Below are positions 16,968 through 62,887 of a stretch of DNA of 64,000 bases, in pieces (the stretch's first letter is position 1; every line of letters begins with the position of its first letter). The translations under genes were made by a program, and so were the position numbers. The stretch spans positions 28,109-92,108 of the forward strand of contig CASFMW010000003.1 of the NCBI GenBank assembly GCA_949295935.1, given 5' to 3'. Source of the stretch: an uncultured Pseudomonadota bacterium (GTDB taxonomy: Bacteria > Pseudomonadota > Alphaproteobacteria > RF32 > CAG-239). The notes under the pieces were generated by a model that saw only the letters and a list, made by a program, of their open reading frames with translations, was not told the origin of the DNA and ran no database searches.

Positions 16968-16992
16968 TTTAGACAAAGGTCAACAAAAAAGC
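16968..16992 (-). promoter_or_regulatory. Conserved promoter-like element upstream of thyA (minus-strand reading TTTTTTGTTGACCTTTGTCTAAAA; -35 TTGACC, 16-bp spacer, -10 TATATT)
   Basis: Near-identical motif recurs at 25830, 34065, 40992 and, related, 18699. Confidence 0.5.
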
Positions 16993-17076
16993 ATATCAAA
17001 AAAGCGGTTGCAATCTCGATTGAATTCAGTTATAACCAAATCAATTTTTAAGATTTTGTTTTTAAGGAGTTTTTTA

Positions 17077-18698: not shown

Positions 18699-18777
18699 TT
18701 TGACATTTTTGTCACAAAGTGCTACCTAAAAATCAGAGAATTATTATTTTAGTTATTAATCTATAAATCTTATTATC
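18699..18777 (+). promoter_or_regulatory. Promoter (TTGACA-N17-TACCTAAAAAT) plus conserved A/U-rich SD-less leader for the first of two tandem membrane paralogs
   Basis: ~57-bp block 18721-18777 ~93% identical to 19315-19372. Confidence 0.5.
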
Positions 18778-19257
18778 ATGAGTACGATAGAAATTTTATT
18801 ACTGGGCATCATGGCCGTCATTGCGATTAATTTTTTCTATGTTCTTTTCAAGAAGCCGTTTTGGAATCTTTTCAAACAAGCAGTATGGAACACATGGAAC
18901 GGATTGTGCCTTATTATTTTAGGCATACTGTTTGTAATTTATGCAATCAACACGGAAAGAATAAACGGATTCTTTTTGCTGGCCGTATTTGTCGCAACCT
19001 TCGTGAGCTATATCTCGACCAAAATGATAGAAAGAAAATTCTGCACAGTTATGTATGGAGAAACTCATTTTTTCCGCATTACATCTTTTGTCGGCAAAAA
19101 GATATACGGAGAATTAGCCATCACTGGCTCGGGTGAAACTGTTCCAGCACGATTGGTTTGTCCGCTTCACGCCGATTACAAGTATAATGACATCATACCG
19201 GTTGCGGTTTTGTTATGCAAACAAAATGAAATCATCGTCGAACCGACGGAAAATTAA
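18778..19257 (+). CDS. Hypothetical membrane protein, tandem paralog 1 (159 aa; N-terminal TM helices, C-terminal soluble domain)
   Basis: Shares NFFYVL(F/Y)K.PFWN, HFF(R/K)I...G(K/R)I(Y/F)GEL and C-terminal VEP motifs with the ORF at 19373-19849. Confidence 0.65.
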   Translation: MSTIEILLLGIMAVIAINFFYVLFKKPFWNLFKQAVWNTWNGLCLIILGILFVIYAINTERINGFFLLAVFVATFVSYISTKMIERKFCTVMYGETHFFRITSFVGKKIYGELAITGSGETVPARLVCPLHADYKYNDIIPVAVLLCKQNEIIVEPTEN

Positions 19258-19291: not shown

Positions 19292-19372
19292 TTTGACTTT
19301 TTAAGCATAAAATGCTTACCTAAAAATCAGAGAATTATTATTTTAGTTATTAATTTATAAAATCTTATTTTT
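19291..19372 (+). promoter_or_regulatory. Promoter (TTGACT-N18-TACCTAAAAAT) plus conserved leader of tandem paralog 2
   Basis: Duplicate of 18699-18777 element. Confidence 0.5.
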
Positions 19373-19849
19373 ATGGAAACGCTTAAAATTTTTTTATGTA
19401 TTGTCATTTTCATAAACATGACAAATTTTTTTTATGTGTTATATAAAGCTCCTTTCTGGAACTTTGATAAACAATTTTTATGGAAATTATGGGTTTTATT
19501 CTGTTGCTCTGCATTAATTGTATTAGCCTTAATTTGTTATTTTCATAACATTAATAACAAATGGATTATAACAACAATATTGTTAGCTCTCGGAATGGAT
19601 TTAAACTCCATCCCCCTTGTGCTGTCAGATTTTAATAAAGTGATAAAAGAAAGACCTCACTTTTTTAAAATAGAGAGAATAGAAAACGGACGAATTTTCG
19701 GTGAACTTTTTATAGCCGAAAAGGACGACACATTCCCTGCTGAGATGATAAACGTTCCACAAGGAAAATACAAAATCGGAAATAAAATAACAGTAAACGT
19801 CGTTATCTGTACAATTGAAAAAATAAAAGTTGAGCCTCAAACAACTTAA
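19373..19849 (+). CDS. Hypothetical membrane protein, tandem paralog 2 (158 aa)
   Basis: Paralog of 18778-19257 (roughly 30% identity, same architecture). Confidence 0.65.
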   Translation: METLKIFLCIVIFINMTNFFYVLYKAPFWNFDKQFLWKLWVLFCCSALIVLALICYFHNINNKWIITTILLALGMDLNSIPLVLSDFNKVIKERPHFFKIERIENGRIFGELFIAEKDDTFPAEMINVPQGKYKIGNKITVNVVICTIEKIKVEPQTT

Positions 19850-20414: not shown

Positions 20415-20987
20415 ATGTTTTTGATTGTCGGTTTAGGAAACCCCGGAGCAGAATATTCAGCCACCCGCCACAATGTCGGATTTATGGCTGCCGATGCTCT
20501 GCATGAAAACTATGCGTTCGGAACATTTAAAAATAAGTTTGACGGCTTGATTGCCGAAGGAAAAATCGGCAATGAAAAAGTTTATTTGTTAAAACCGCAA
20601 ACCTTTATGAATTTATCCGGCAATTCTGTCGTTAAAGCAGCTTCTTTTTATAAGATTTTGCCGCAAAATATCGTGGTTATCCATGACGACATGGACTTAC
20701 CTGTTGGCAAGCTCAAAGCCAAACTTGGCGGCGGCGCCGGCGGACACAACGGGCTAAAATCCATTGACGCCGCAATTACGCCGAATTACAACCGCATCCG
20801 CATTGGCGTCGGCCACCCGCAAGGACACGGTGAAGATGTGGTAAATTATGTTTTAGGCGGCTTTTCAAAAGCAGATAAAGAAACCATTTTTGCTGAGATT
20901 GATATGATAAGCGAAACCCTGCCGACTTTGCTGGAAAAAGGCATGGCCGCTTACTCCAACCTCATTGGCCAAAAACAACATTCGTAG
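20415..20987 (+). CDS. pth: Peptidyl-tRNA hydrolase
   Basis: MFLIVGLGNPG..., catalytic His region, 190 aa. Confidence 0.95.
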   Translation: MFLIVGLGNPGAEYSATRHNVGFMAADALHENYAFGTFKNKFDGLIAEGKIGNEKVYLLKPQTFMNLSGNSVVKAASFYKILPQNIVVIHDDMDLPVGKLKAKLGGGAGGHNGLKSIDAAITPNYNRIRIGVGHPQGHGEDVVNYVLGGFSKADKETIFAEIDMISETLPTLLEKGMAAYSNLIGQKQHS

Positions 20988-21192
20988 AATATTTGCTAGC
21001 TTGATAACGCTGTATTAGTTGCTCGCTATACAAACTTTGTAAAAGTTCGGAGAATGAGTCGAGTAGTAGGCGTCAAGGGCAAAAGTACCACTGCCGCAAA
21101 AGAAAGCACTTGAATGTGCTTTCTTTAAGGATAAGCAATGAGACTTTCCTTTGTTAGAATGCGACAGCTTTCGCAACAAAGGTTTAGACGCA

Positions 21193-21334
21193 CTAATCGA
21201 CCATTATACAAACTTTTCTACAACTTAAAACTGGGGATAATAGTACAGATAGAGGCATTTCTAGCTGCGAGAAAAATTTTAGTGGGTACATGAATTTTCC
21301 GAGACAGCGTAAAATGCCTCTAGATGTGCTGTTA
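21193..21334 (+). repeat. Intergenic repeat copy A (~142 bp) containing 11-bp inverted repeat TAGAGGCATTT...AAATGCCTCTA; candidate small RNA / REP-like element
   Basis: ~97% identical to 34865-34994 apart from an 11-bp indel. Confidence 0.7.
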
Positions 21335-21347
21335 TACACAGTTTTTT

Positions 21348-23465
21348 TTATTCGAGGTCTTCCCCAGTCTCCTGATTAACTCTCTTTGCAGAAAGCTTAA
21401 CCTTGCCACGATTGTCCGTACCAAGACATTTTACCCAAATTGAGTCGCCTTCTTTGTAGAAGTCGGAAACAGAAGCAATGCGCTCGTTCTTGACTTCGGA
21501 AATGTGAACCAAACCTTCGGTTGTTCCGAGGAAGCGAACAAAAGCACCAAAATCCATAATCTTGGTAATAACACCATGATAGATTTTGCCTTCTTCCGGC
21601 TCGGCAACAATACCGGTAATCCATTCAAGAGCAGCATCACCGTCTTCTTTCTTAAGCGAAGCAATTTTGATAACACCATCGTCGCTGATATCAATTTTAC
21701 AATGTGTTTTTTCGGTAATTTCACGAATAACTTTACCGCCTGAACCAATAACTTCACGAATTTTATCAACCGGAATCTTAATCGCAACAATACGCGGTGC
21801 TTTATCCGAAACATGAGGACGCGGTTCAGAAATAGCCTTTGCCATCTCACCCAAGATATGGATACGACCTTCGTGAGCCTGAGCCAAAGCAGTTTTCATA
21901 ATATCTTTGGTGATTGATGTGATTTTAATATCCATCTGCAAAGCGGTAACACCGTCTTTTGTACCGGCAACCTTGAAATCCATATCGCCGAGGTGGTCTT
22001 CATCACCGAGAATATCGGTCAAAACGGCCACACGACCATCTTCTTCCTTAATCAAGCCCATAGCAATACCGGCAACTGGTTTAGCCATTGGCACACCGGC
22101 CGACATCAAAGACATTGTTGTTCCACAAACCGTCGCCATTGACGAAGACCCGTTTGATTCCAAGATTTCGGAAACAACACGAACAGCATAAGGAAATGTA
22201 TCTTTATTTTTCGGCATCATCGGGTGAATAGCGCGCCAAGCCAATTTTCCGTGACCGATTTCACGACGTCCGGGGCTACCGATACGACCACATTCACCAA
22301 CCGAGAACGGCGGAAAGTTATAGTTCAGCATAAAGTCTTCTTTATATTCTTCCATCAAACCGTCAACAATTTGAGCATCTTCGCCCGTACCCAAAGTTGT
22401 AACAACCAAAGCCTGTGTTTCGCCACGAGTAAAGATAGCTGAACCATGGGCCATCGGCAAAACATCAACTTCGCACCAAATCGGACGAACGGTTTTGGTG
22501 TCACGACCGTCAATACGTTTTCCGGTTGTCAAAACTTTTTCGCGAACAACTTTGTGCATCAATTTTTCAATAGCGTCTTGAGCAAACTTTTGTTCAAACT
22601 CATTTTCCGGATCAAGGGTTGCCTTAAATTCTTCAGAAGCCTGAGCAACAAGTTCGCCACGTTTCAGTTTATCGGTTTCTTTGAAAGCTTCTTCAAACTT
22701 AGAGATAAAGCCTTTTTCCAGTTTGTTATAGAGTTCATCAAACTCCGGCGGGAATTTCGGCATTTCCCAACGCGGCTTGCCGGCTTCTTTAACCATTTCA
22801 TTAATCATGGCAATAACCGGCTGGAAGTTTTCAAATCCGAACATAACCGCGCCAAGCATGGTTTCTTCAGACAATTCCTGAGCCTCAGATTCAACCATCA
22901 GCACGCCTTCAGATGTACCGGCCACTGCCAGCTCAAGTTCAGATTCTTTTTGTTGTTCTACTGTCGGGTTCAAGATATATTCACCGTTTTTATAACCGAT
23001 TTTAGCAGCACCGATAGGTCCGAGGAACGGAATACCGGAAATTGCCAAAGCGGCTGAAGCGGCAATCATAGCCACAACATCAGAATCTGTCTGCTGGTCA
23101 TGAGAAAGAACGGTACAAATAACCTGAACTTCATTTTTAAAAGCATCCGGAAACAGCGGACGAATAGGTCTGTCAATCAAGCGAGAGATAAGAACTTCGC
23201 GCTCAGAAGGCTTACCTTCACGCTTCATAAATCCACCGGGGATTTTTCCGGTAGCATAATATTTTTCTTGATAATTAACGGTCAAAGGGAAGAAATCCTG
23301 ATCGGGCGCAGCCTCTTTTGCGGCACAAACGGTAGCCAAAACCGCCGTTCCGCCATAAGTAGCCTCAACGGCACCGAGAGCCTGCTTCGCAACTTTACCT
23401 GTTTCCAACACCAACTTTCTGCCGCCCCAATCCAGTTCTTTGCGGCAAATATTCAATTCGACCAT
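21348..23465 (-). CDS. pnp: Polyribonucleotide nucleotidyltransferase (PNPase)
   Basis: 705 aa; two RNase PH domains, KH and S1 domains; follows rpsO. Confidence 0.97.
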
Positions 23466-33413: not shown

Positions 33414-33427
33414 AACTTCGGTTTTAA

Positions 33428-33467
33428 CAAAAAAGCTCTGAGTAGTGAAACTCAGAGCTTTTTTTAA
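33428..33467. terminator. Bidirectional terminator between rplI (+) and the 180-aa paralog (-): AGCTCTGAG-tagtgaa-CTCAGAGCT flanked by A/T runs
   Basis: Perfect 9-bp stem. Confidence 0.75.
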
Positions 33468-34006
33468 TCTAAAGAAGCAACCGGACAGGCAAAATAAGTA
33501 TTGAGTTTTCCACCAGCAATAAGACTATCAGGACTATCCAAAAAATAAACAATTCCAGCAGCCCCTCCATTTCCATACTCACTATCTGTCCACAAAATAT
33601 CATGAGGACAAATCGGCTCAAAGCCCATTCTTATTCGCTGAATATTAATCTGCGTTAAACGAGGACAAACTTCTACCAGCCAAAAATGCCTATCCCCGCG
33701 AGAACATTTATTGCCAAGAATAGTTTGTTTTTCACAATACTTTCCTGCTTCAAACCAATCTAAATGATTAGTTGAATGCTCAATAAATACAGCTTTTCCA
33801 GCAATAATTATTGCTTTAGGATGTACCCCTTTCAAAGGAAACCAAGAACGTTTATCATTTTCATAAACAACTTCAAAAGAAAAGCGTTCTTTAGGACCTC
33901 CTTTCTGAACAAAATACCCTCCAAAATAACGAGCAATTTCTGCCGGAAGAATTTTATTCTCTTTCATAAGAGTTACCACTTGTTCTATAACTTCTTTTTT
34001 TTCCAT
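33464..34006 (-). CDS. Paralog-family protein 1 (180 aa) of a three-member small-protein family; possible SUKH/Smi1-Knr4-like fold (speculative)
   Basis: Shares with 34123-34662 and 40491-40925 the core ...(V/L)(V/L)Y(K/E)N..(K)RS..PL.GV.P.AI..GK... and YC(E/Q)KQ...G...FW and F(D/S)xx(Y/W)W blocks. Confidence 0.7.
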   Translation of the reverse strand: MEKKEVIEQVVTLMKENKILPAEIARYFGGYFVQKGGPKERFSFEVVYENDKRSWFPLKGVHPKAIIIAGKAVFIEHSTNHLDWFEAGKYCEKQTILGNKCSRGDRHFWLVEVCPRLTQINIQRIRMGFEPICPHDILWTDSEYGNGGAAGIVYFLDSPDSLIAGGKLNTYFACPVASLD

Positions 34007-34064: not shown

Positions 34065-34088
34065 ATAGACAAAAGTCAACAAAAAAAG
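34065..34088 (-). promoter_or_regulatory. Conserved promoter-like element (minus strand TTTTTTTGTTGACTTTTGTCTATA) upstream of the 180-aa paralog, abutting the upstream gene's terminator
   Basis: Motif family. Confidence 0.5.
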
Positions 34089-34118
34089 GTTTTATCCTTT
34101 AAGATAAAACCTTTTTTG
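34081..34118 (-). terminator. Rho-independent terminator of the 179-aa paralog gene (AGGTTTTATCCTT / AAGATAAAACCT + T-run)
   Basis: Inverted repeat with flanking A/T runs. Confidence 0.7.
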
Positions 34119-34122
34119 AAAA

Positions 34123-34662
34123 TCACGGCATCAATAACATCGGTCGAACACTAAAATTTTGAGATTTAGAAGCAATTTTCTCCACTCCTTTCTTAAAACA
34201 AGAACAGGAACATCCATACCTAGAAGAATAAATCCAATAAGCAGAAGAAAAATCAATTTTTTGCCCACCAAGAATTTCTATCTCCTGATTAATGTTATCA
34301 GCATTCTTAAACAAGAAATCCCAAATCTTACGAGTACCCATATTGGCCGAATAACCATAAAATTTAATTTGAGCAGCTCCATCTAAAGCTTCTGCAAAAG
34401 AAAGCCTTTGTGGCAAATCCCAAAGCGAAACAAAACAACGTTCCACAAAAATAGCAATTGGAATCTCGCCCAAAACTTTACAATCATAAACGTGCCCTGA
34501 CTTATACAAAACCTTAAAAGGCAAAGGCTCAGAAACAACACTCACTTCTGTATCAGCAACAAATTTCCCGCCCCATCGTTTGCATAAATCATCAATTGAA
34601 ATACCTTTTCTCAACATCTCACTAAAAAGGTAATCTACCGCTTCACTTTTACTTAGTTCCAT
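34123..34662 (-). CDS. Paralog-family protein 2 (179 aa)
   Basis: Homologous to 33464-34006 (N-terminal ...RWGGKFV... vs ...RYFGGYFV...; core PLPFKVLYKSG...GEIPIAIFVER) and to 40491-40925. Confidence 0.7.
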   Translation of the reverse strand: MELSKSEAVDYLFSEMLRKGISIDDLCKRWGGKFVADTEVSVVSEPLPFKVLYKSGHVYDCKVLGEIPIAIFVERCFVSLWDLPQRLSFAEALDGAAQIKFYGYSANMGTRKIWDFLFKNADNINQEIEILGGQKIDFSSAYWIYSSRYGCSCSCFKKGVEKIASKSQNFSVRPMLLMP

Positions 34663-34864
34663 AATAAAAATATTAATAATACAAATAAAAATTCAAAATC
34701 AAATTATCTTTAAATGAAAAAACAATTTTTGTCAATGTCTGGATTAGTTGCCCGTTGCTATATAAAAAGCTCGGAGAACGAGGCAAATAATAAGATTTTA
34801 GGGCGACGACACCGCAGCGTACAAACTAGTACGTGAGAATGTCGGAGACCCGCAGACAACACCC

Positions 34865-34994
34865 TAATCGACCATTATACAAACTTAAAACTGGGGATAA
34901 TAGTACAGATAGAGGCATTTCTAGCTGCGAGAAAAATTTTAGTGAGTACATGAATTTTTCGAGACAGCGTAAAATGCCTCTAGATGTGCTGTTA
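34865..34994 (+). repeat. Intergenic repeat copy B (~130 bp), near-identical to 21193-21334, embedded in a 450-bp intergenic region with additional mosaic sub-repeats
   Basis: Direct sequence comparison; flanking sub-repeat GAGtCGAATAATAAGAaTTTAGGG...AGCGTACA.A..AGTACGTGA occurs at 34775 and 35011, with a related copy at 21055. Confidence 0.7.
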
Positions 34995-35114
34995 AAAGTT
35001 TAATATGTGAGTCGAATAATAAGAATTTAGGAATTTTGCGAGGAGCGTACACAGAAGTACGTGACCGAGCAAAATATCCGACAATTCTGTATTAGTCGAC
35101 CACAGAGTAAACTT

Positions 35115-37622
35115 TTAAAGGGTTGGAGCTATCTCCTCCACCTCATAACACTCAATAAAATCGCCAACTTGAATGTCGTTGTAGTTTTCAAAACTCATAC
35201 CACATTCATAACCGGATTTTACTTCACGAACATCTTCTTTGAAGCGTTTGAGTTGAGCAAGAGCACCATCGTGAATAACAACGTTATCACGCAACAGACG
35301 AACCTTTGCCCCACGCTTAACAAAGCCCTCGGTAACCATACAACCGCCAACTTTACCAACGCCGGTAATATTGAAGACATTGCGAATTTCAGCATATCCG
35401 ATAATCTTTTCTTTAAGCTCAGGCGTTAACATTCCCTCCAGCGCTTTCTTAATATCGTCAACCACATCATAGATGATAGAATAATAACGAATATCAACAC
35501 CGTCTTGACGGGCAAGATCACGCGCATGAGGAATGGCTCGAACGTTAAATCCGATAATAAAGGCATTTGAAGCCTTCGCCAAAGTAACGTCTGAATCCGA
35601 AATAGGACCAACCGCCGAATGCAAAATCTGAACACTGACTTCGTCATTAGAGAGCTTTTTAATTGTTCCCTCAATAGCTTCGATAGAACCTTGAACGTCG
35701 GCCTTGATAATAACCGGAAGATGTTTAACTTCACCGGATTTAATTTTATCAAGCATTTGCTCCATTGCCGATTTCGCACTCTTAACAAGCTTAGCGTCAC
35801 GCTCTTTACGAATACGATAATTGGTAACTTCTTTAGCCTGAGCCTCGTCTTTAACGATAACAAAATCATCACCTGCGGCCGGTGTACCTTGCAAACCAAG
35901 GATTTCAACCGGAGTGGCCGGACCGGCCTCAGTCATTTTCTTACCATGTTCATTAAACATCGCACGAATATGACCCCATTCTTTTCCGGCAATACAAATA
36001 TCGCCGACATGAAGTGTTCCGTTCTGAACCAAAACAGTTGCAACCGAACCACGGCCTTTTTCCATTTTAGCTTCAACCACAGCACCTTGAGCCAAACGGT
36101 TTGGATTTGCTTTCAAATCAAGAATTTCTGCTTGCAACAAAATAGCTTCGACCAACTTATCAATATTGATTCTCTTCTTAGCAGAAACCTCGGCGCACAA
36201 ACTATCACCGCCCATCTCTTCAACCGCAATCCCATGTTGCAGCAAAGCTGTCTTAACTTTCATCGGATCAGCACCCGGCAAATCGATTTTATTAATAGCA
36301 ACCACAATTGGCACTTCAGCGGCTTGAGCATGACGAATAGCTTCAACTGTCTGCGGCATAATACCATCATTAGCAGCTACAACCAAAACCACAATATCCG
36401 TAACTTTTGCACCACGAGCACGCATTTCAGAGAAAGCCTCGTGTCCCGGAGTATCAATAAAGGTAATTTTTTTACCACCGGCAACTTCAATCTGATAAGC
36501 ACCGATATGCTGTGTAATACCACCAGCTTCACGAGCAGCCACATTGGTCTCACGCAAAGCATCAAGCAATGATGTTTTACCATGGTCAACGTGTCCCATA
36601 ACCGTAACAACCGGCGCTCTTGGCAACAAATCATCAGCCGTATCTTGCGGACCGGTCAAACCTTGTTCCACATCACTATCGGCCACACGTTTAACCTTAT
36701 GACCAAATTCTTCAACCACGATCTGAGCCGTATCAGCATCAATTGGTTGGTTAATAGTAGCCATAACACCGAGAGCCATCAACTTTTTAATAACCTCAGC
36801 ACTTTTTTCTGCCATACGGTTAGCCAATTCCTGAACAGTAATAATCTCAGGAACAACAACCTCTTTAATAATTTTTTCAGCAGGTTGTTGCGGAGCTTGC
36901 TGAGGTTTCGGCTGTTTTTTCTTAAAGCGACGACGCGGAGCTCCATAACCATAATCATCGTCATCATCATCCATTGAGCCCATAACATTATGAAGATTAA
37001 CTTTCCCTCCACGACGTTGTGGTTCAAAGCTACGCTTCATAATTTTTTTGCGCTCTTGTTCAAAAACTTCTTCTTTGCTTAAAGACTTTCCGCCTTTCTG
37101 AGAACGATAAGAACTATCATCATTATCTTCATCATCATCAAAATCACGAGGTCTCTTATCCTTAGCCTTTGAAGCTGCACGTTCTTCTGCCGCTGCTGAT
37201 TTTTCAGGATTAACGGCAGAATCAGCCTTAGCCTCAACTTTTTGCGGCTGCTTAACTTCTTGCTTTTGCTGACTTTGAGTCTTTTCTTTTTCTTGTTCTT
37301 CAGCCTGTTTTTGCGCCTTAAGAGCCTCTTCTTGCTCACGACGCAACTGACGTTGACGCTCTTTTTCTTCCTCTTCAAGACGACGCTTTGCCTCATGCTC
37401 CTTTGCCTCGGCAATCAACTTAAGCTTAGCAGCCGTAGCATCATCAATCTGCACTTTAGGCTCTTCTTTTTTAGCTGCAGAAATAATTCTTTTTTTGCGC
37501 ACCTCAACCTGAACGACCTTTTTGCCGTCATTATGGCTTTTAGCGGCATCCCCCACATTTTTAAGGGTAAGGGTAGATTTCCCTGATAATGTCAACCTGC
37601 TTTTTGCACTATCTTCTGTCAT
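35115..37622 (-). CDS. infB: Translation initiation factor IF-2
   Basis: 835 aa; Lys/Glu/Ala-rich N-terminal region, GTPase domain ([16 protein letters not shown]), C-terminal IF2 domains. Confidence 0.97.
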
Positions 37623-40925: not shown

Positions 40926-40991
40926 AAAAATAAATATTAAAATTATAAAATAAAAAAATACAAATCACTAATTTGGGATATAAAGCAAGAT

Positions 40992-41014
40992 TAGACAAAA
41001 GTCAACAAAAAAAA
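40992..41014 (-). promoter_or_regulatory. Conserved promoter-like element (minus strand TTTTTTTTGTTGACTTTTGTCTAA) upstream of the 144-aa paralog; T-run abuts lptF/G stop codon
   Basis: Motif family; -35 TTGACT, 17-bp spacer, TATATC. Confidence 0.5.
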
Positions 41015-42124
41015 TTATCCATCTTCCAACCGCAATAGGACTGAAACACTGACCAACGCCGTAATCAAAATCGGCGTCCACACGGCCATAAACGGCGGCA
41101 AATAAGAATTAAGCCCAAATGCATAAATAACCTGCGAAGCAAAATAAACTACAAAGCCGGAAACAATACCGCCAACGATAAGGAACAAGACACCGCCTTT
41201 ACGCATATTCGGACGCAAAGCAAAAACAGCTGCGACCAAAACCATCGCACAAAGCAAAAATGGTGACGCTAACAAAGATAAATAACGCATTTTATGTTTC
41301 ACGGCCGAAAAACCCGATTTTTCATAAAACCGAATTGTGTCAGGCAAATCCCAAAAAGATATTGCCTCCGGATCCACAAAATTTTCTTTAATTCTATCCA
41401 GATTTATTGATGTTTTATAAGAAACTTTGTTCAAATCAATACGCGGCTTTCCTGTTTCAAAAACCTTAACATCTCTAAGCTCAAACTTCTGATCTTTCAG
41501 CACCGCCATAAAAGAATTAAGCTGGCGCAAGATTTGAGAATCACGATCAAGCTCTAAAATATCCACATCATAAAGATAAAGCGTATCTTCATCTTGCTGA
41601 TGAACAGACTTTGCCTCCAGCACAAGCACTCTGTCATTATCAACAGCTTCTCTGATCCACAACCCTTTGTTCGAAAAAAGAACCGCTTTTGGATTTTTCG
41701 TTTTCAAACGATAATCAAGAGTTTCAAAAATCTCATTCATATAAGAGGCCACCGGATTGATCACGGCCACATTAATAACTCCGACCATAAACACGGCAAA
41801 CAGTAGCGGCGCCAAAAAGCCCCAAACGGAAACACCGGCCGCCCGCACAATCACAAATTCGCTGTTTTTGCTCAAACGCCAAAAAGTAGCCATCGCTGCA
41901 ATCATCATCACGAACGGAAACACCATTTCCAAGGTTTTTGGCAGCTTCATGATCACCAGCTGGACTACAAAACCGGCAGAAATATCCGGCCGATCAGCCA
42001 CACGACGCAGCATATCAATCATCTCAAACATAAACACGATACCGATGACCATCAGCAATACGGACAAAAAGTTCCATATTATCTGCTTCATCAAATAGCG
42101 ACCGAGAATTGAGTTTGGGTTCAT
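41015..42124 (-). CDS. LPS export ABC permease, LptF/LptG (YjgP/YjgQ) family
   Basis: 6-TM permease with large periplasmic beta-jellyroll region; likely start MNPNSILGRYL... (ORF-track start 42190 adds 22 aa). Confidence 0.8.
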   Translation of the reverse strand: MNPNSILGRYLMKQIIWNFLSVLLMVIGIVFMFEMIDMLRRVADRPDISAGFVVQLVIMKLPKTLEMVFPFVMMIAAMATFWRLSKNSEFVIVRAAGVSVWGFLAPLLFAVFMVGVINVAVINPVASYMNEIFETLDYRLKTKNPKAVLFSNKGLWIREAVDNDRVLVLEAKSVHQQDEDTLYLYDVDILELDRDSQILRQLNSFMAVLKDQKFELRDVKVFETGKPRIDLNKVSYKTSINLDRIKENFVDPEAISFWDLPDTIRFYEKSGFSAVKHKMRYLSLLASPFLLCAMVLVAAVFALRPNMRKGGVLFLIVGGIVSGFVVYFASQVIYAFGLNSYLPPFMAVWTPILITALVSVSVLLRLEDG

Positions 42125-58263: not shown

Positions 58264-58297
58264 AAAACGAGTTTATGATATTAGGTATAATAGTCAA

Positions 58298-58338
58298 TAA
58301 AAAAAAACCTGAGTTTTAGAAACTCAGGTTTTTTTTAA
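58298..58338. terminator. Strong bidirectional terminator (AACCTGAGTTT-taga-AAACTCAGGTT flanked by A8/T8)
   Basis: Perfect 11-bp stem; immediately 3' of the 115-aa gene. Confidence 0.8.
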
Positions 58339-58686
58339 TTAAACATCAAGCACAGCAACACATTCAAAAATCCCTTCTTTAAAATAGAAAAGCTTGAAAT
58401 AAATTCCATGCATTGAACGAACCATTATTGCCTTACCAGAAAAACTCAAATTTCCGATTTTTTCTTCATCTTCATAAATCGGAGAAACAAAAGTCATACC
58501 ATAAGCTAAAAACTTACTCATATCATCATAGGTAAAATGAGCATAGCGTTCTACTTCTAAAGCAATTAACATACCATAAAAACAAGCGCCGACCGACAAA
58601 GAAATTTTTCCAACAGAATAATCTCCATTCAACGTCCGTAAGACATCTTCTTTAGTTGGTTTTCTGAATTCATCATTTTTTTTCAT
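58339..58686 (-). CDS. Hypothetical small protein (~115 aa), stand-alone unit with own TTGACA promoter and terminator
   Basis: ORF; ATG at 58686 (ORF-track TTG start at 58707); no recognisable domain. Confidence 0.5.
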   Translation of the reverse strand: MKKNDEFRKPTKEDVLRTLNGDYSVGKISLSVGACFYGMLIALEVERYAHFTYDDMSKFLAYGMTFVSPIYEDEEKIGNLSFSGKAIMVRSMHGIYFKLFYFKEGIFECVAVLDV

Positions 58687-62842: not shown

Positions 62843-62887
62843 ACAAAAAAAAGAGAGAAAGGCTTTCAGCAATCTCTCTTTTTTTTC
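62843..62887. terminator. Bidirectional terminator between grpE and ftsK (AAGAGAGA...TCTCTCTT + T-run)
   Basis: 8-bp stem with flanking A/T runs. Confidence 0.7.

Follow-up and report, generated by a model that had tools for sequence, protein, structure and literature searches.

The DNA analyzed here is a 64,000-nucleotide (nt) stretch of contig CASFMW010000003.1 (positions 28,109 to 92,108 of the forward strand; GenBank assembly GCA_949295935.1) from an uncultured alphaproteobacterium (RF32; CAG-239), and we refer to this whole 64-kb stretch as the window. The gene neighborhood of interest comprises pth on the + strand (20415 to 20987) and pnp, rpsO, truB, and infB, all on the − strand. The pnp gene (polynucleotide phosphorylase [PNPase], 21348 to 23465; TIGR03591, 1035.8 bits) is convergent with pth, and infB (IF-2; TIGR00487, 813.8 bits) lies at 35115 to 37622. 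A sequence-only reading of the window, whose naming of the flanking genes pth (+), pnp (−), and infB (−) our annotation bears out, had pointed to a noncoding repeat present in the pth/pnp spacer and again 3′ of infB, and had proposed a candidate small RNA (sRNA) or an element resembling repetitive extragenic palindromes (REPs). We report here that this repeat belongs, as one subtype, to a superfamily of noncoding, rod-like hairpin modules of ~125 nt whose range is restricted to one lineage, a clade of uncultured gut Alphaproteobacteria.

A repeat search of the window recovered the two copies in the same orientation, as a direct repeat of 113 nt with 98% identity (21222 to 21334 and 34882 to 34994) and a second shared part of 28 nt with 93% identity (21188 to 21215 and 34859 to 34886), which is set off from the 113-nt core by an 11-nt indel. 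Beyond this pair (21193 to 21334 and 34865 to 34994), the 64-kb window contains no long repeats. Both copies contain the 11-bp inverted repeat previously described with a spacing of ~50 nt (TAGAGGCATTT/AAATGCCTCTA), its halves lying 51 nt apart, and it constitutes just the best-paired portion of a rod hairpin of ~100 to 120 nt; the two rods are the largest local hairpins in the window. The repeat, which we term H1, folds with a ΔG of −50.7 kcal/mol on the + strand and −43.5 kcal/mol on the − strand (z scores of −6.1 and −4.6 against shuffled sequences), and none of 200 shuffles matched these energies on either strand. The interval originally drawn, 21193 to 21334, is a genuine repeat but not a single unit. 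It spans the tail of one module and most of the next, its first ~25 nt (CTAATCGACCATTATAC...) being the 3′ end of an adjoining module of another subtype, and the spacers hold further modules (21041 to 21217, 34764 to 34886, and 34994 to 35117) that the sequence-only reading had not recorded.

A scan of 185,579 species genomes for both 11-mers, with the gap left free, returned 33 loci. Thirty of these are clear H1 homologues from ~10 uncultured gut alphaproteobacterial metagenome-assembled genomes (MAGs) of human and roe deer origin. Loci in Leadbetterella, Variovorax, and Nostoc account for the other three; their interiors are unrelated, and we rejected them as chance matches. A second pattern, restricted to the foot and tip shared by all modules, yielded 118 further loci from gut metagenomes. 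We numbered the relative loci L001 to L154, with L034 to L036 denoting contigs that carry the window's exact Pth protein. A hidden Markov model (HMM) of the module alignment resolved 223 modules in 151 arrays of one to six units, and no locus mixes orientations. The sequence-only reading had counted it as refuting evidence if just these two copies existed genome-wide; related MAGs instead carry up to seven copies of H1 each, along with many more modules of other subtypes. Non-ascertained arrays have a density of ~1 per 30 to 70 kb, from which we extrapolate, rather than count, ~30 to 70 arrays per genome in the clade.

The subtypes, which we named H1 (the originally noted repeat), Ra, Rb, Rc, Rd, and so forth, have the same foot and tip and differ in their arms. 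Each module is one continuous rod of ~125 nt (range, ~120 to 130 nt). Read on the + strand of the window, it consists of an A-run, 3 to 6 variable bases, GGAGAAY, a 5′ arm, the apex, a 3′ arm, (R)TTATAC, the complement of the variable bases, and a T-run. The apex of all modules is conserved as AG-YGTAC-N6-GTACRT-GA. The arms vary by subtype yet remain paired: compensatory changes are found at 11 of 39 pairs within H1, and when 59 modules were aligned column for column across subtypes, 92.1% of cells held standard pairs, versus 31 to 47% when the partners were slid by 1 to 3 columns. Seventeen of 22 pairs changed on both sides across subtypes, and the observed covariation was reached by none of 500 shuffles. 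The pairing and covariation of these 59 modules indicate that the hairpin is selected, or is copied as a hairpin. Three chimeras that join the 5′ arm of one subtype to the 3′ arm of another (L008:5229, L028:3341, and L030:2269) indicate recombination at the shared apex. The outer stem CTGGG/CACAG accompanies H1 at no fewer than five different loci; the infB outer stem, however, is kept though the module differs between the window and L004.

A covariance model built from the 59 modules and run unfiltered places five modules in the window, all in two arrays on the − strand. Array A, behind pnp, consists of a disrupted Ra module (21041 to 21217) and H1 copy A (21227 to 21349). The latter is supported by alignments and by a model match at 21217 to 21354 (106 bits; E = 2.5e-21). 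On the + strand its parts are an A-run (21227 to 21230), the outer stem CTGGGG (21231 to 21236) with ACAG (21338 to 21341), the base GGATAAT...GTTATAC (the second element at 21331 to 21337), and the arms TAGAGGCATTT (21251 to 21261) and AAATGCCTCTA (21313 to 21323) around an apex that is 8 nt shorter. Its T-run (21342 to 21349) overlaps the pnp stop codon at 21348 to 21350. The disrupted module, identified by alignment with intact Ra modules of L002 and L003 and by a partial model match (21031 to 21132), retains an intact 5′ part, AAAAGTTCGGAGAAT-GAGTCGAGTAGTAGGCGTCAAGGGCAAAAGTACC (21041 to 21089), and an intact 3′ part, GACGCACTAATCGACCATTATAC-AAACTTTT (21187 to 21217). Where its apex and some of its 3′ arm should be, there is an unrelated segment of ~97 nt (21090 to 21186), to which we assign no strand and which contains the small hairpins AAAGAAAGCAC-TTGAAT-GTGCTTTCTTT and CCTTTGTT...AACAAAGG; this segment may derive from a former terminator or from a further small insertion. 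A module-arm remnant, CTGTATTAGTTGCTCGCTATAC (21010 to 21031, − strand), lies ~20 nt past the pth stop codon and is also present in L002.

Array B, behind infB, comprises an Rb module (34764 to 34886), H1 copy B (34887 to 34994), and an Rc module (34994 to 35117). The Rb module reads AAAAAGCTCGGAGAAC-GAGGCAAATAATAAGATTTTAGGGCGACGACACC-apex AGCGTACAAACTAGTACGTGA-...CCCTAATCGACCATTATAC-AAACTT and is matched by the model at 34777 to 34876 (57.8 bits). H1 copy B (model match, 34877 to 35011; 93.8 bits) is without the 3′ base and outer stem as read on the + strand and continues directly into the next module. That module, Rc, reads AAAAGTTTAATATGT-GAGTCGAATAATAAGAATTTAGGAATTTTGCGAGG-apex AGCGTACACAGAAGTACGTGA-CCGAGCAAAATATCCGACAATTCTGTATTAGTCGACCACAGAG-TAAACTTTT (model match, 35012 to 35100; 53 bits), and its T-run overlaps the infB stop codon at 35115 to 35117. 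At the distal end of the array lies a second module-arm remnant, CTGGATTAGTTGCCCGTTGCTATAT (34739 to 34763, − strand).

The position of the arrays relative to genes is strict. With arrays at contig edges excluded, 126 of 146 start no more than a few bases from the stop codon of an open reading frame (ORF) of at least 80 amino acids (aa) whose sense strand is the reverse complement of the + orientation given above, and the offset from the stop codon to the model start is mostly −5 to +2. The meaningful orientation of the repeats is the − strand of the window, sense to pnp and infB. Approximately 15 of 100 distinct junctions have an ORF that has lost its own stop codon and whose frame continues across the A-run and outer stem as far as the TAA of cGTATAAy, a conserved part of the module. 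Such repeat-supplied ends, of 4 to 5 codons plus the stop, were noted at L019:764-800 (def) and in L028, L032, L082, L085, L117, and L125, among others. Only two arrays, that of L019 and the second one in L031, seemed to break the gene-sense rule, and both cases were due to wrong ORF calls; the true neighbors are def, which ends at the module's TAA, and a tRNA-Trp gene. The genes served are diverse and include pnp, infB, pheT, thyA, ftsH, htpG, ftsK, secA, groEL, def, fabZ, rplO, an ion channel gene, and a gene for a TonB-like protein.

The modules keep a fixed polarity with respect to the gene that precedes them and, it appears, to the replication fork as well. Fifty-seven arrays lie behind majority-strand genes and one behind a minority-strand gene, although minority-strand ORFs make up 25% of the total (P = 2e-6), and GC skew is negative on the window-+ orientation for 138 of 141 arrays. 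Of the two convergent genes at array A, the leading-strand gene pnp is the one that the array serves; pth is a minority-strand gene, for which the array is not oriented. Choice of stop codon is restricted as well: the 100 distinct junctions use TAA 79 times, TAG 21 times, and TGA never, against a TGA background of 17.5% among long ORFs in the same loci (14 to 18% in both locus subgroups; P = 7e-9). This absence points to an interaction with translation termination. It could arise from selection against leaky UGA near a strong hairpin, from a difference between RF1 and RF2, or from a target requirement.

Since the modules start at the stop codon and are gene-sense, they should form part of the 3′ untranslated region (UTR) of the upstream gene's mRNA. 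No promoter-like site was found in or upstream of the arrays beyond shuffle expectation, and no motif is conserved upstream of them across at least 110 loci. A U-run of at least 4 nt directly follows the distal outer stem in 84 of 112 distinct arrays (75%), which belong to the A+T-richer genomes including that of the window, and 79 of these 84 have no other terminator within 90 nt. Array A of the window, for instance, presents the hairpin and then the U-run as CCCCAGUUUU. In these A+T-richer genomes, the arrays are likely to be the terminator themselves. Several arrays that have no U-run lead straight into a classical terminator. G+C-richer relatives (L013, L020, L022, L025, L026, L001/L024, and L077) have a classical terminator just past the module, which places the module between stop codon and terminator and hence in the 3′ UTR. 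A conserved tail of ~15 nt, CTGGARATAGTGC in the sense orientation, lies between module and terminator in L013, L020, L022, L024, L025, L026, and L077.

Bidirectional intrinsic terminators resemble the modules in having an A-run, a hairpin, and a T-run and in starting at the stop codon. The module hairpin, however, is 4 to 5 times longer, is conserved across loci and species, has a weak AU-rich stem at the U-run, and often occurs in tandem. In the window's genome, ordinary terminators likewise combine an A-run, a stem, and a T-run, lie at or close to stop codons, and score weakly with the module model. The weak matches at 33422 to 33472, 34071 to 34127, and 58294 to 58343 are such terminators and match only the outer part of the model. 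A simple terminator scan did not call the modules. Rfam, whose use the sequence-only reading had suggested, gave no match at gathering score in the window and only chance-level matches in both spacers (E ≥ 0.2), among them a weak match of Rc to domain 5 of group II introns (18 bits versus 61 needed; E = 0.21) that we judged to be chance.

Array content turns over rapidly among close relatives. The pth/pnp spacers of the window and L002, whose PNPases are 99.3% identical, have a common framework and differ in the subtype at the first position and in the extra Ra beside pnp. At infB, no two of the window, L004, L008, and L023 have the same array. An identical 8-nt deletion shortens the apex stem of both H1 copies in the window and does not occur in L002, so these two copies have been homogenized within the window's genome. 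Module-arm remnants lie beside many arrays, and chimeras are common. Empty sites can also be recognized: the ftsK-like gene at the end of the window is followed by a plain terminator (62845 to 62886) where L022 and L024 have arrays, and the same contrast is seen at thyA and two other genes. The orthologues at these sites (58 to 84% amino acid identity) are too diverged to give exact insertion points. Module-like DNA was found in no viral contigs, plasmids, phages, or any of 5,426 Escherichia coli genomes. All three public contigs that encode the window's exact Pth (L034 to L036) end 80 to 130 nt past pth, inside array A, which indicates that the repeat family breaks short-read assemblies. A look-up of the exact window PNPase protein found none on record.

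Several known repeat systems share parts of this description. REPs stabilize upstream mRNA against 3′ exonucleases and can terminate transcription; those that lie no more than 15 nt from a stop codon cause ribosome stalling and trans-translation (PMC5082802, PMC12306157). The modules are like the REPs and bacterial interspersed mosaic elements (BIMEs) of Enterobacteria in being extragenic and mostly at gene 3′ ends, often within 15 nt of the stop codon, in forming mosaic arrays, and in having stem positions that differ between copies while complementarity is retained (PMC3333891, PMC12306157, PMC5082802). The 223 modules in 151 arrays, with 126 of 146 arrays abutting a stop codon, thus have the extragenic, multicopy, clustered, 3′-end distribution of REPs. 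REPs, however, are 30 to 40 nt long, within a class of short palindromes of about 20 to 40 nt, and alternate in orientation in BIMEs, whereas the modules are far longer and direct. REPs are also defined by a GTAG (or CGTC) 5′ of the hairpin foot (PMC3333891, PMC3733652). The module foot is GGAGAAY/TTATAC, without a common GTAG; GTAG and CGTC are confined to the Ra arm (GAGTAGTAGGCGTC) and are absent from H1, Rb, and Rc.

A REPIN forms a long hairpin that is flanked by A/T stretches and has a variable but paired spacer, and up to five REPINs can stand in tandem (PMC3337134). The REPIN/RAYT systems of Pseudomonas fluorescens and E. coli (PMC3337134, PMC3116915) resemble the modules in several respects: extragenic hairpins of ~90 to 130 nt with conserved ends and a variable paired middle, A- and T-run flanks that suggest terminator co-option, tandem arrays of up to ~5 units, several sequence groups per genome, vertical inheritance within a lineage, and strain turnover. 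A REPIN, however, is two short inverted REP palindromes. The module ends are not themselves small palindromes, the arms lack a palindromic core, and apex and base are conserved to the same degree. Modules are, moreover, asymmetric, their strict polarity relative to gene and replication has not been described for REPINs, and no RAYT was found in ~1 Mb of flanks. This polarity relative to replication does resemble that of the IS200/IS605 family, whose member IS608 works on the lagging-strand template (PMC3333891). The modules likewise depart from miniature inverted-repeat transposable elements (MITEs), which have terminal inverted repeats and a target-site duplication of fixed length: the module arms are inverted repeats, and no fixed-length duplication accompanies them.

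Imperfect palindromes of 100 to 150 bp or modular mosaics, intergenic and often transcribed, are also typical of ERIC/IRU, Correia/NIME, RUP, BOX, Rickettsia palindromic elements (RPE), and Rhizobium RIME. Some of these families alter mRNA stability, BOX and NIME are modular, and RPE and RIME occur in Alphaproteobacteria. We know of none described with a stop codon register, TGA avoidance, replication-linked polarity, or a base and apex with exchangeable arms. The modules are set apart from these families by their descriptions rather than by sequence comparison; the 5,426 E. coli genomes, carriers of ERIC and REP, contain no sequence match to the modules. The family is previously undescribed. 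It works like REP/BIME/REPIN and ERIC-type repeats and departs from REPs and MITEs, and apparently from REPINs, in defining features. The conserved foot and tip with exchangeable arms, the direct tandem arrays of unlike subtypes, the stop codon register with TGA avoidance, and the near-absolute polarity appear to be new.

The anatomy, selected hairpin structure, copy number, strict position and polarity, and rapid turnover that we observe are probably best accounted for by a REP/BIME/REPIN-like mosaic repeat, arranged in head-to-tail arrays behind leading-strand stop codons and transcribed in the 3′ UTR as a terminator or 3′-end hairpin. The proposal of a REP-like or mobile miniature element is accordingly supported in kind, given a dispersed, noncoding, palindromic, extragenic repeat at gene and operon 3′ ends with fast strain turnover. 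The modules would be transcribed as the 3′ UTR of the upstream gene, on the − strand of the window. Their RNA would act as a terminator hairpin or, ahead of a separate terminator, as a 3′-end hairpin that blocks 3′-to-5′ exonucleases as REPs do. Because the hairpin begins 0 to 10 nt from the stop codon, it would probably meet the terminating ribosome. The modules would be expected to have the whole range of effects known from REPs at this position, ribosome stalling and trans-translation included. The family would multiply and be homogenized as a repeat, with gene conversion or recombination through base and apex swapping arms and whole modules between loci. Gene conversion via the shared foot and tip suffices for arm swapping and for the shared apex deletion, but not for the colonization of new sites. 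The fixed polarity with respect to replication suggests that one step takes place on single-stranded DNA; it would be accounted for if new sites arose, as they may, through a single-strand mechanism coupled to replication, like that of REPIN/RAYT or IS200/IS605 elements.

A number of results weigh against this account or temper it. The role in termination or stabilization is one that we infer from sequence only. The stem beside the U-run is short and AU-rich, with an outer stem of 4 to 6 mostly weak pairs (e.g., GUUCG/CGAAC) under an internal loop, unlike the short G+C-rich stem of an efficient intrinsic terminator. No RAYT or Y1 transposase gene adjoins any array in ~1 Mb of flanks, as searched with phmmer using IS608 TnpA, IS200 TnpA, and E. 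coli RAYT queries against ORFs of at least 70 aa. No consistent target-site duplication of fixed length was found at the junctions; the longest shared direct word across them comes to 5.7 nt versus 5.2 nt in mismatched flanks, an excess that comes from neighboring module remnants. Polarity relative to replication is not fully separable from an association with leading-strand genes, and the absence of TGA (0 of 100 versus 17.5%) is not predicted by a purely selfish repeat.

Of 162 distinct modules, 145 also fold better on the antisense strand (mean, −49.8 kcal/mol, versus −41.1 kcal/mol on the sense strand), which at face value would suggest an antisense RNA or a hairpin in template-strand DNA. 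We traced this asymmetry to the conserved foot and tip, which the modules share through common descent and which hold an invariant G·U in the apex stem and G·A mismatches at the foot; in the variable arms, the strands differ by ~1 kcal/mol, and the sense strand has the greater number of G·U pairs (183 versus 121). Since the asymmetry is confined to foot and tip and the arms are near neutral, the energies permit no conclusion as to strand. The conserved non-Watson-Crick positions are better read as a sequence-specific recognition feature. The idea that the + strand is the functional one, which draws on the lower energies and the G·U and G·A positions, is weakened by this confinement to base and apex and by the gene-sense orientation of every array. 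The same evidence bears on an independent sRNA gene with its own promoter on the better-folding + strand, an idea to which the lower energies, the conserved G·U and tandem G·A positions, and the strong conservation of structure would lend themselves. Such an RNA would run antisense into a neighboring gene end at every locus, its units stand in tandem arrays of unlike subtypes, and modules in fact begin at the upstream stop codon in the sense direction. No σ70-like promoter lies in or upstream of the arrays, no upstream motif is conserved at the loci compared (at least 110), and Rfam offers no match; we find the sRNA proposal of the sequence-only reading barely credible.

Selection on the modules as host property deserves more weight. 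The elements could be cis-acting 3′ UTR elements, not mainly selfish, whose base and apex would be recognized by a dedicated RNA- or DNA-binding protein, whose stop-proximal hairpin would tune translation termination, trans-translation, or decay of the upstream gene's mRNA, and whose arrays would set the strength. Invariant non-Watson-Crick positions at base and apex in all subtypes across ~10 or more species, a tight register with the stop codon, and the persistence of arrays at pnp, infB, thyA, pheT, and other genes across species despite changing content all agree with such a role. The total lack of TGA at junctions, with TAG at background, suggests that the terminating ribosome “sees” the module, and REPs offer a precedent in ribosome stalling within 15 nt of the stop codon (PMC12306157). 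We consider this unlikely all the same, as array content is swapped between strains with 99% identical neighboring genes, remnants and chimeras are many, the window orthologues do well with plain terminators, the genes served have no common function, and no partner protein has been identified. A role at the DNA level, in which gyrase or nucleoid proteins would bind or cleave the arrays or the arrays would serve as replication-related signals at the ends of transcribed leading-strand genes, as proposed for E. coli BIME-2, would agree with the strict polarity relative to replication, the position at gene 3′ ends where transcription-driven supercoiling builds up, and the nonpalindromic conserved base and apex. 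Compensatory covariation over ~50 pairs argues for an intrastrand fold rather than a duplex binding site, however, and the stop codon link and TGA avoidance direct attention to translation and RNA, making this role very unlikely. Highly improbable, too, is a classical MITE moved by nonautonomous cut-and-paste, with the hairpin arms as terminal inverted repeats of an unseen full-length insertion sequence (IS). Dispersal, lack of coding potential, palindromy, MITE-like size, high copy number, and empty versus filled sites recommend it, but pairing and covariation extend along the whole length rather than being limited to the termini, a consistent target-site duplication is missing at the junctions, and strict polarity with direct tandem arrays is not shown by DDE-type MITEs. 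That plasmids, phages, viral contigs, and E. coli genomes contain no related sequence also leaves unsupported the sequence-only reading's thought that the repeat might be a remnant of a known IS end.

A more far-reaching reading would make the modules a new class of polar, stop-codon-anchored hairpin elements, with base and apex read by a dedicated protein (e.g., a domesticated HUH/Y1 enzyme or an RNA-binding factor), exchangeable arms that recombine, and insertion or expansion on one strand relative to the fork. It would couple stop codons readable by RF1 (UAA or UAG, never UGA) to the fate of mRNA 3′ ends. We regard this as quite unlikely; if true, it would constitute a host-integrated regulatory layer beyond a mere REP analogue, and the interest of the family would be higher if the polarity and stop codon rule reflect a dedicated mechanism. 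In any case, the modules provide a large structured repeat family for a poorly known but common clade of gut Alphaproteobacteria represented only by MAGs. Their fixed stop register, total UGA avoidance, and near-absolute leading-strand polarity make for an unusually clean natural system in which to ask whether REP-like elements are selfish DNA, host tools, or both and how stop-proximal hairpins meet terminating ribosomes and 3′ exonucleases, one array lying behind pnp itself. A covariance model and HMM would let annotators mask or label the arrays, which break metagenome assemblies, and array content is a sensitive strain marker.

Several minor observations concern the relative loci and the rest of the window. 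L145 carries an IS200-type TnpA gene (L145:312-782, − strand), the sole Y1 transposase in the ~1 Mb of flanks, with CCCCGCG...CGCGGGG hairpins of its own that are unrelated to the modules, and a decayed module arm (L145:1020-1060); one other weak Y1 match in the flanks was judged spurious. At L031:875-1340, a tRNA-Trp gene is followed by two direct repeats of ~180 nt (each with the tRNA 3′ end and a terminator), a three-module array, and secE, and the repeats look like scars of repeated integration or excision at the tRNA gene. The window also contains a 45-nt direct repeat (98% identity; 18723 to 18767 and 19317 to 19361) upstream of two adjacent ORFs of ~158 aa (18778 to 19257 and 19373 to 19849), one of which was scanned and gave no NCBIfam match; this looks like a tandem gene duplication that includes the upstream region. 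Finally, the motif TTAGACAAA(A/G)GTCAACAAAAAA occurs three times in the window (16969 to 16997, 34065 to 34093, and 40991 to 41019). On the − strand, it reads as a terminator T-run and then GTTGACnTTTGTCTAA, which may be a shared −35 region or a regulator site of the next gene.

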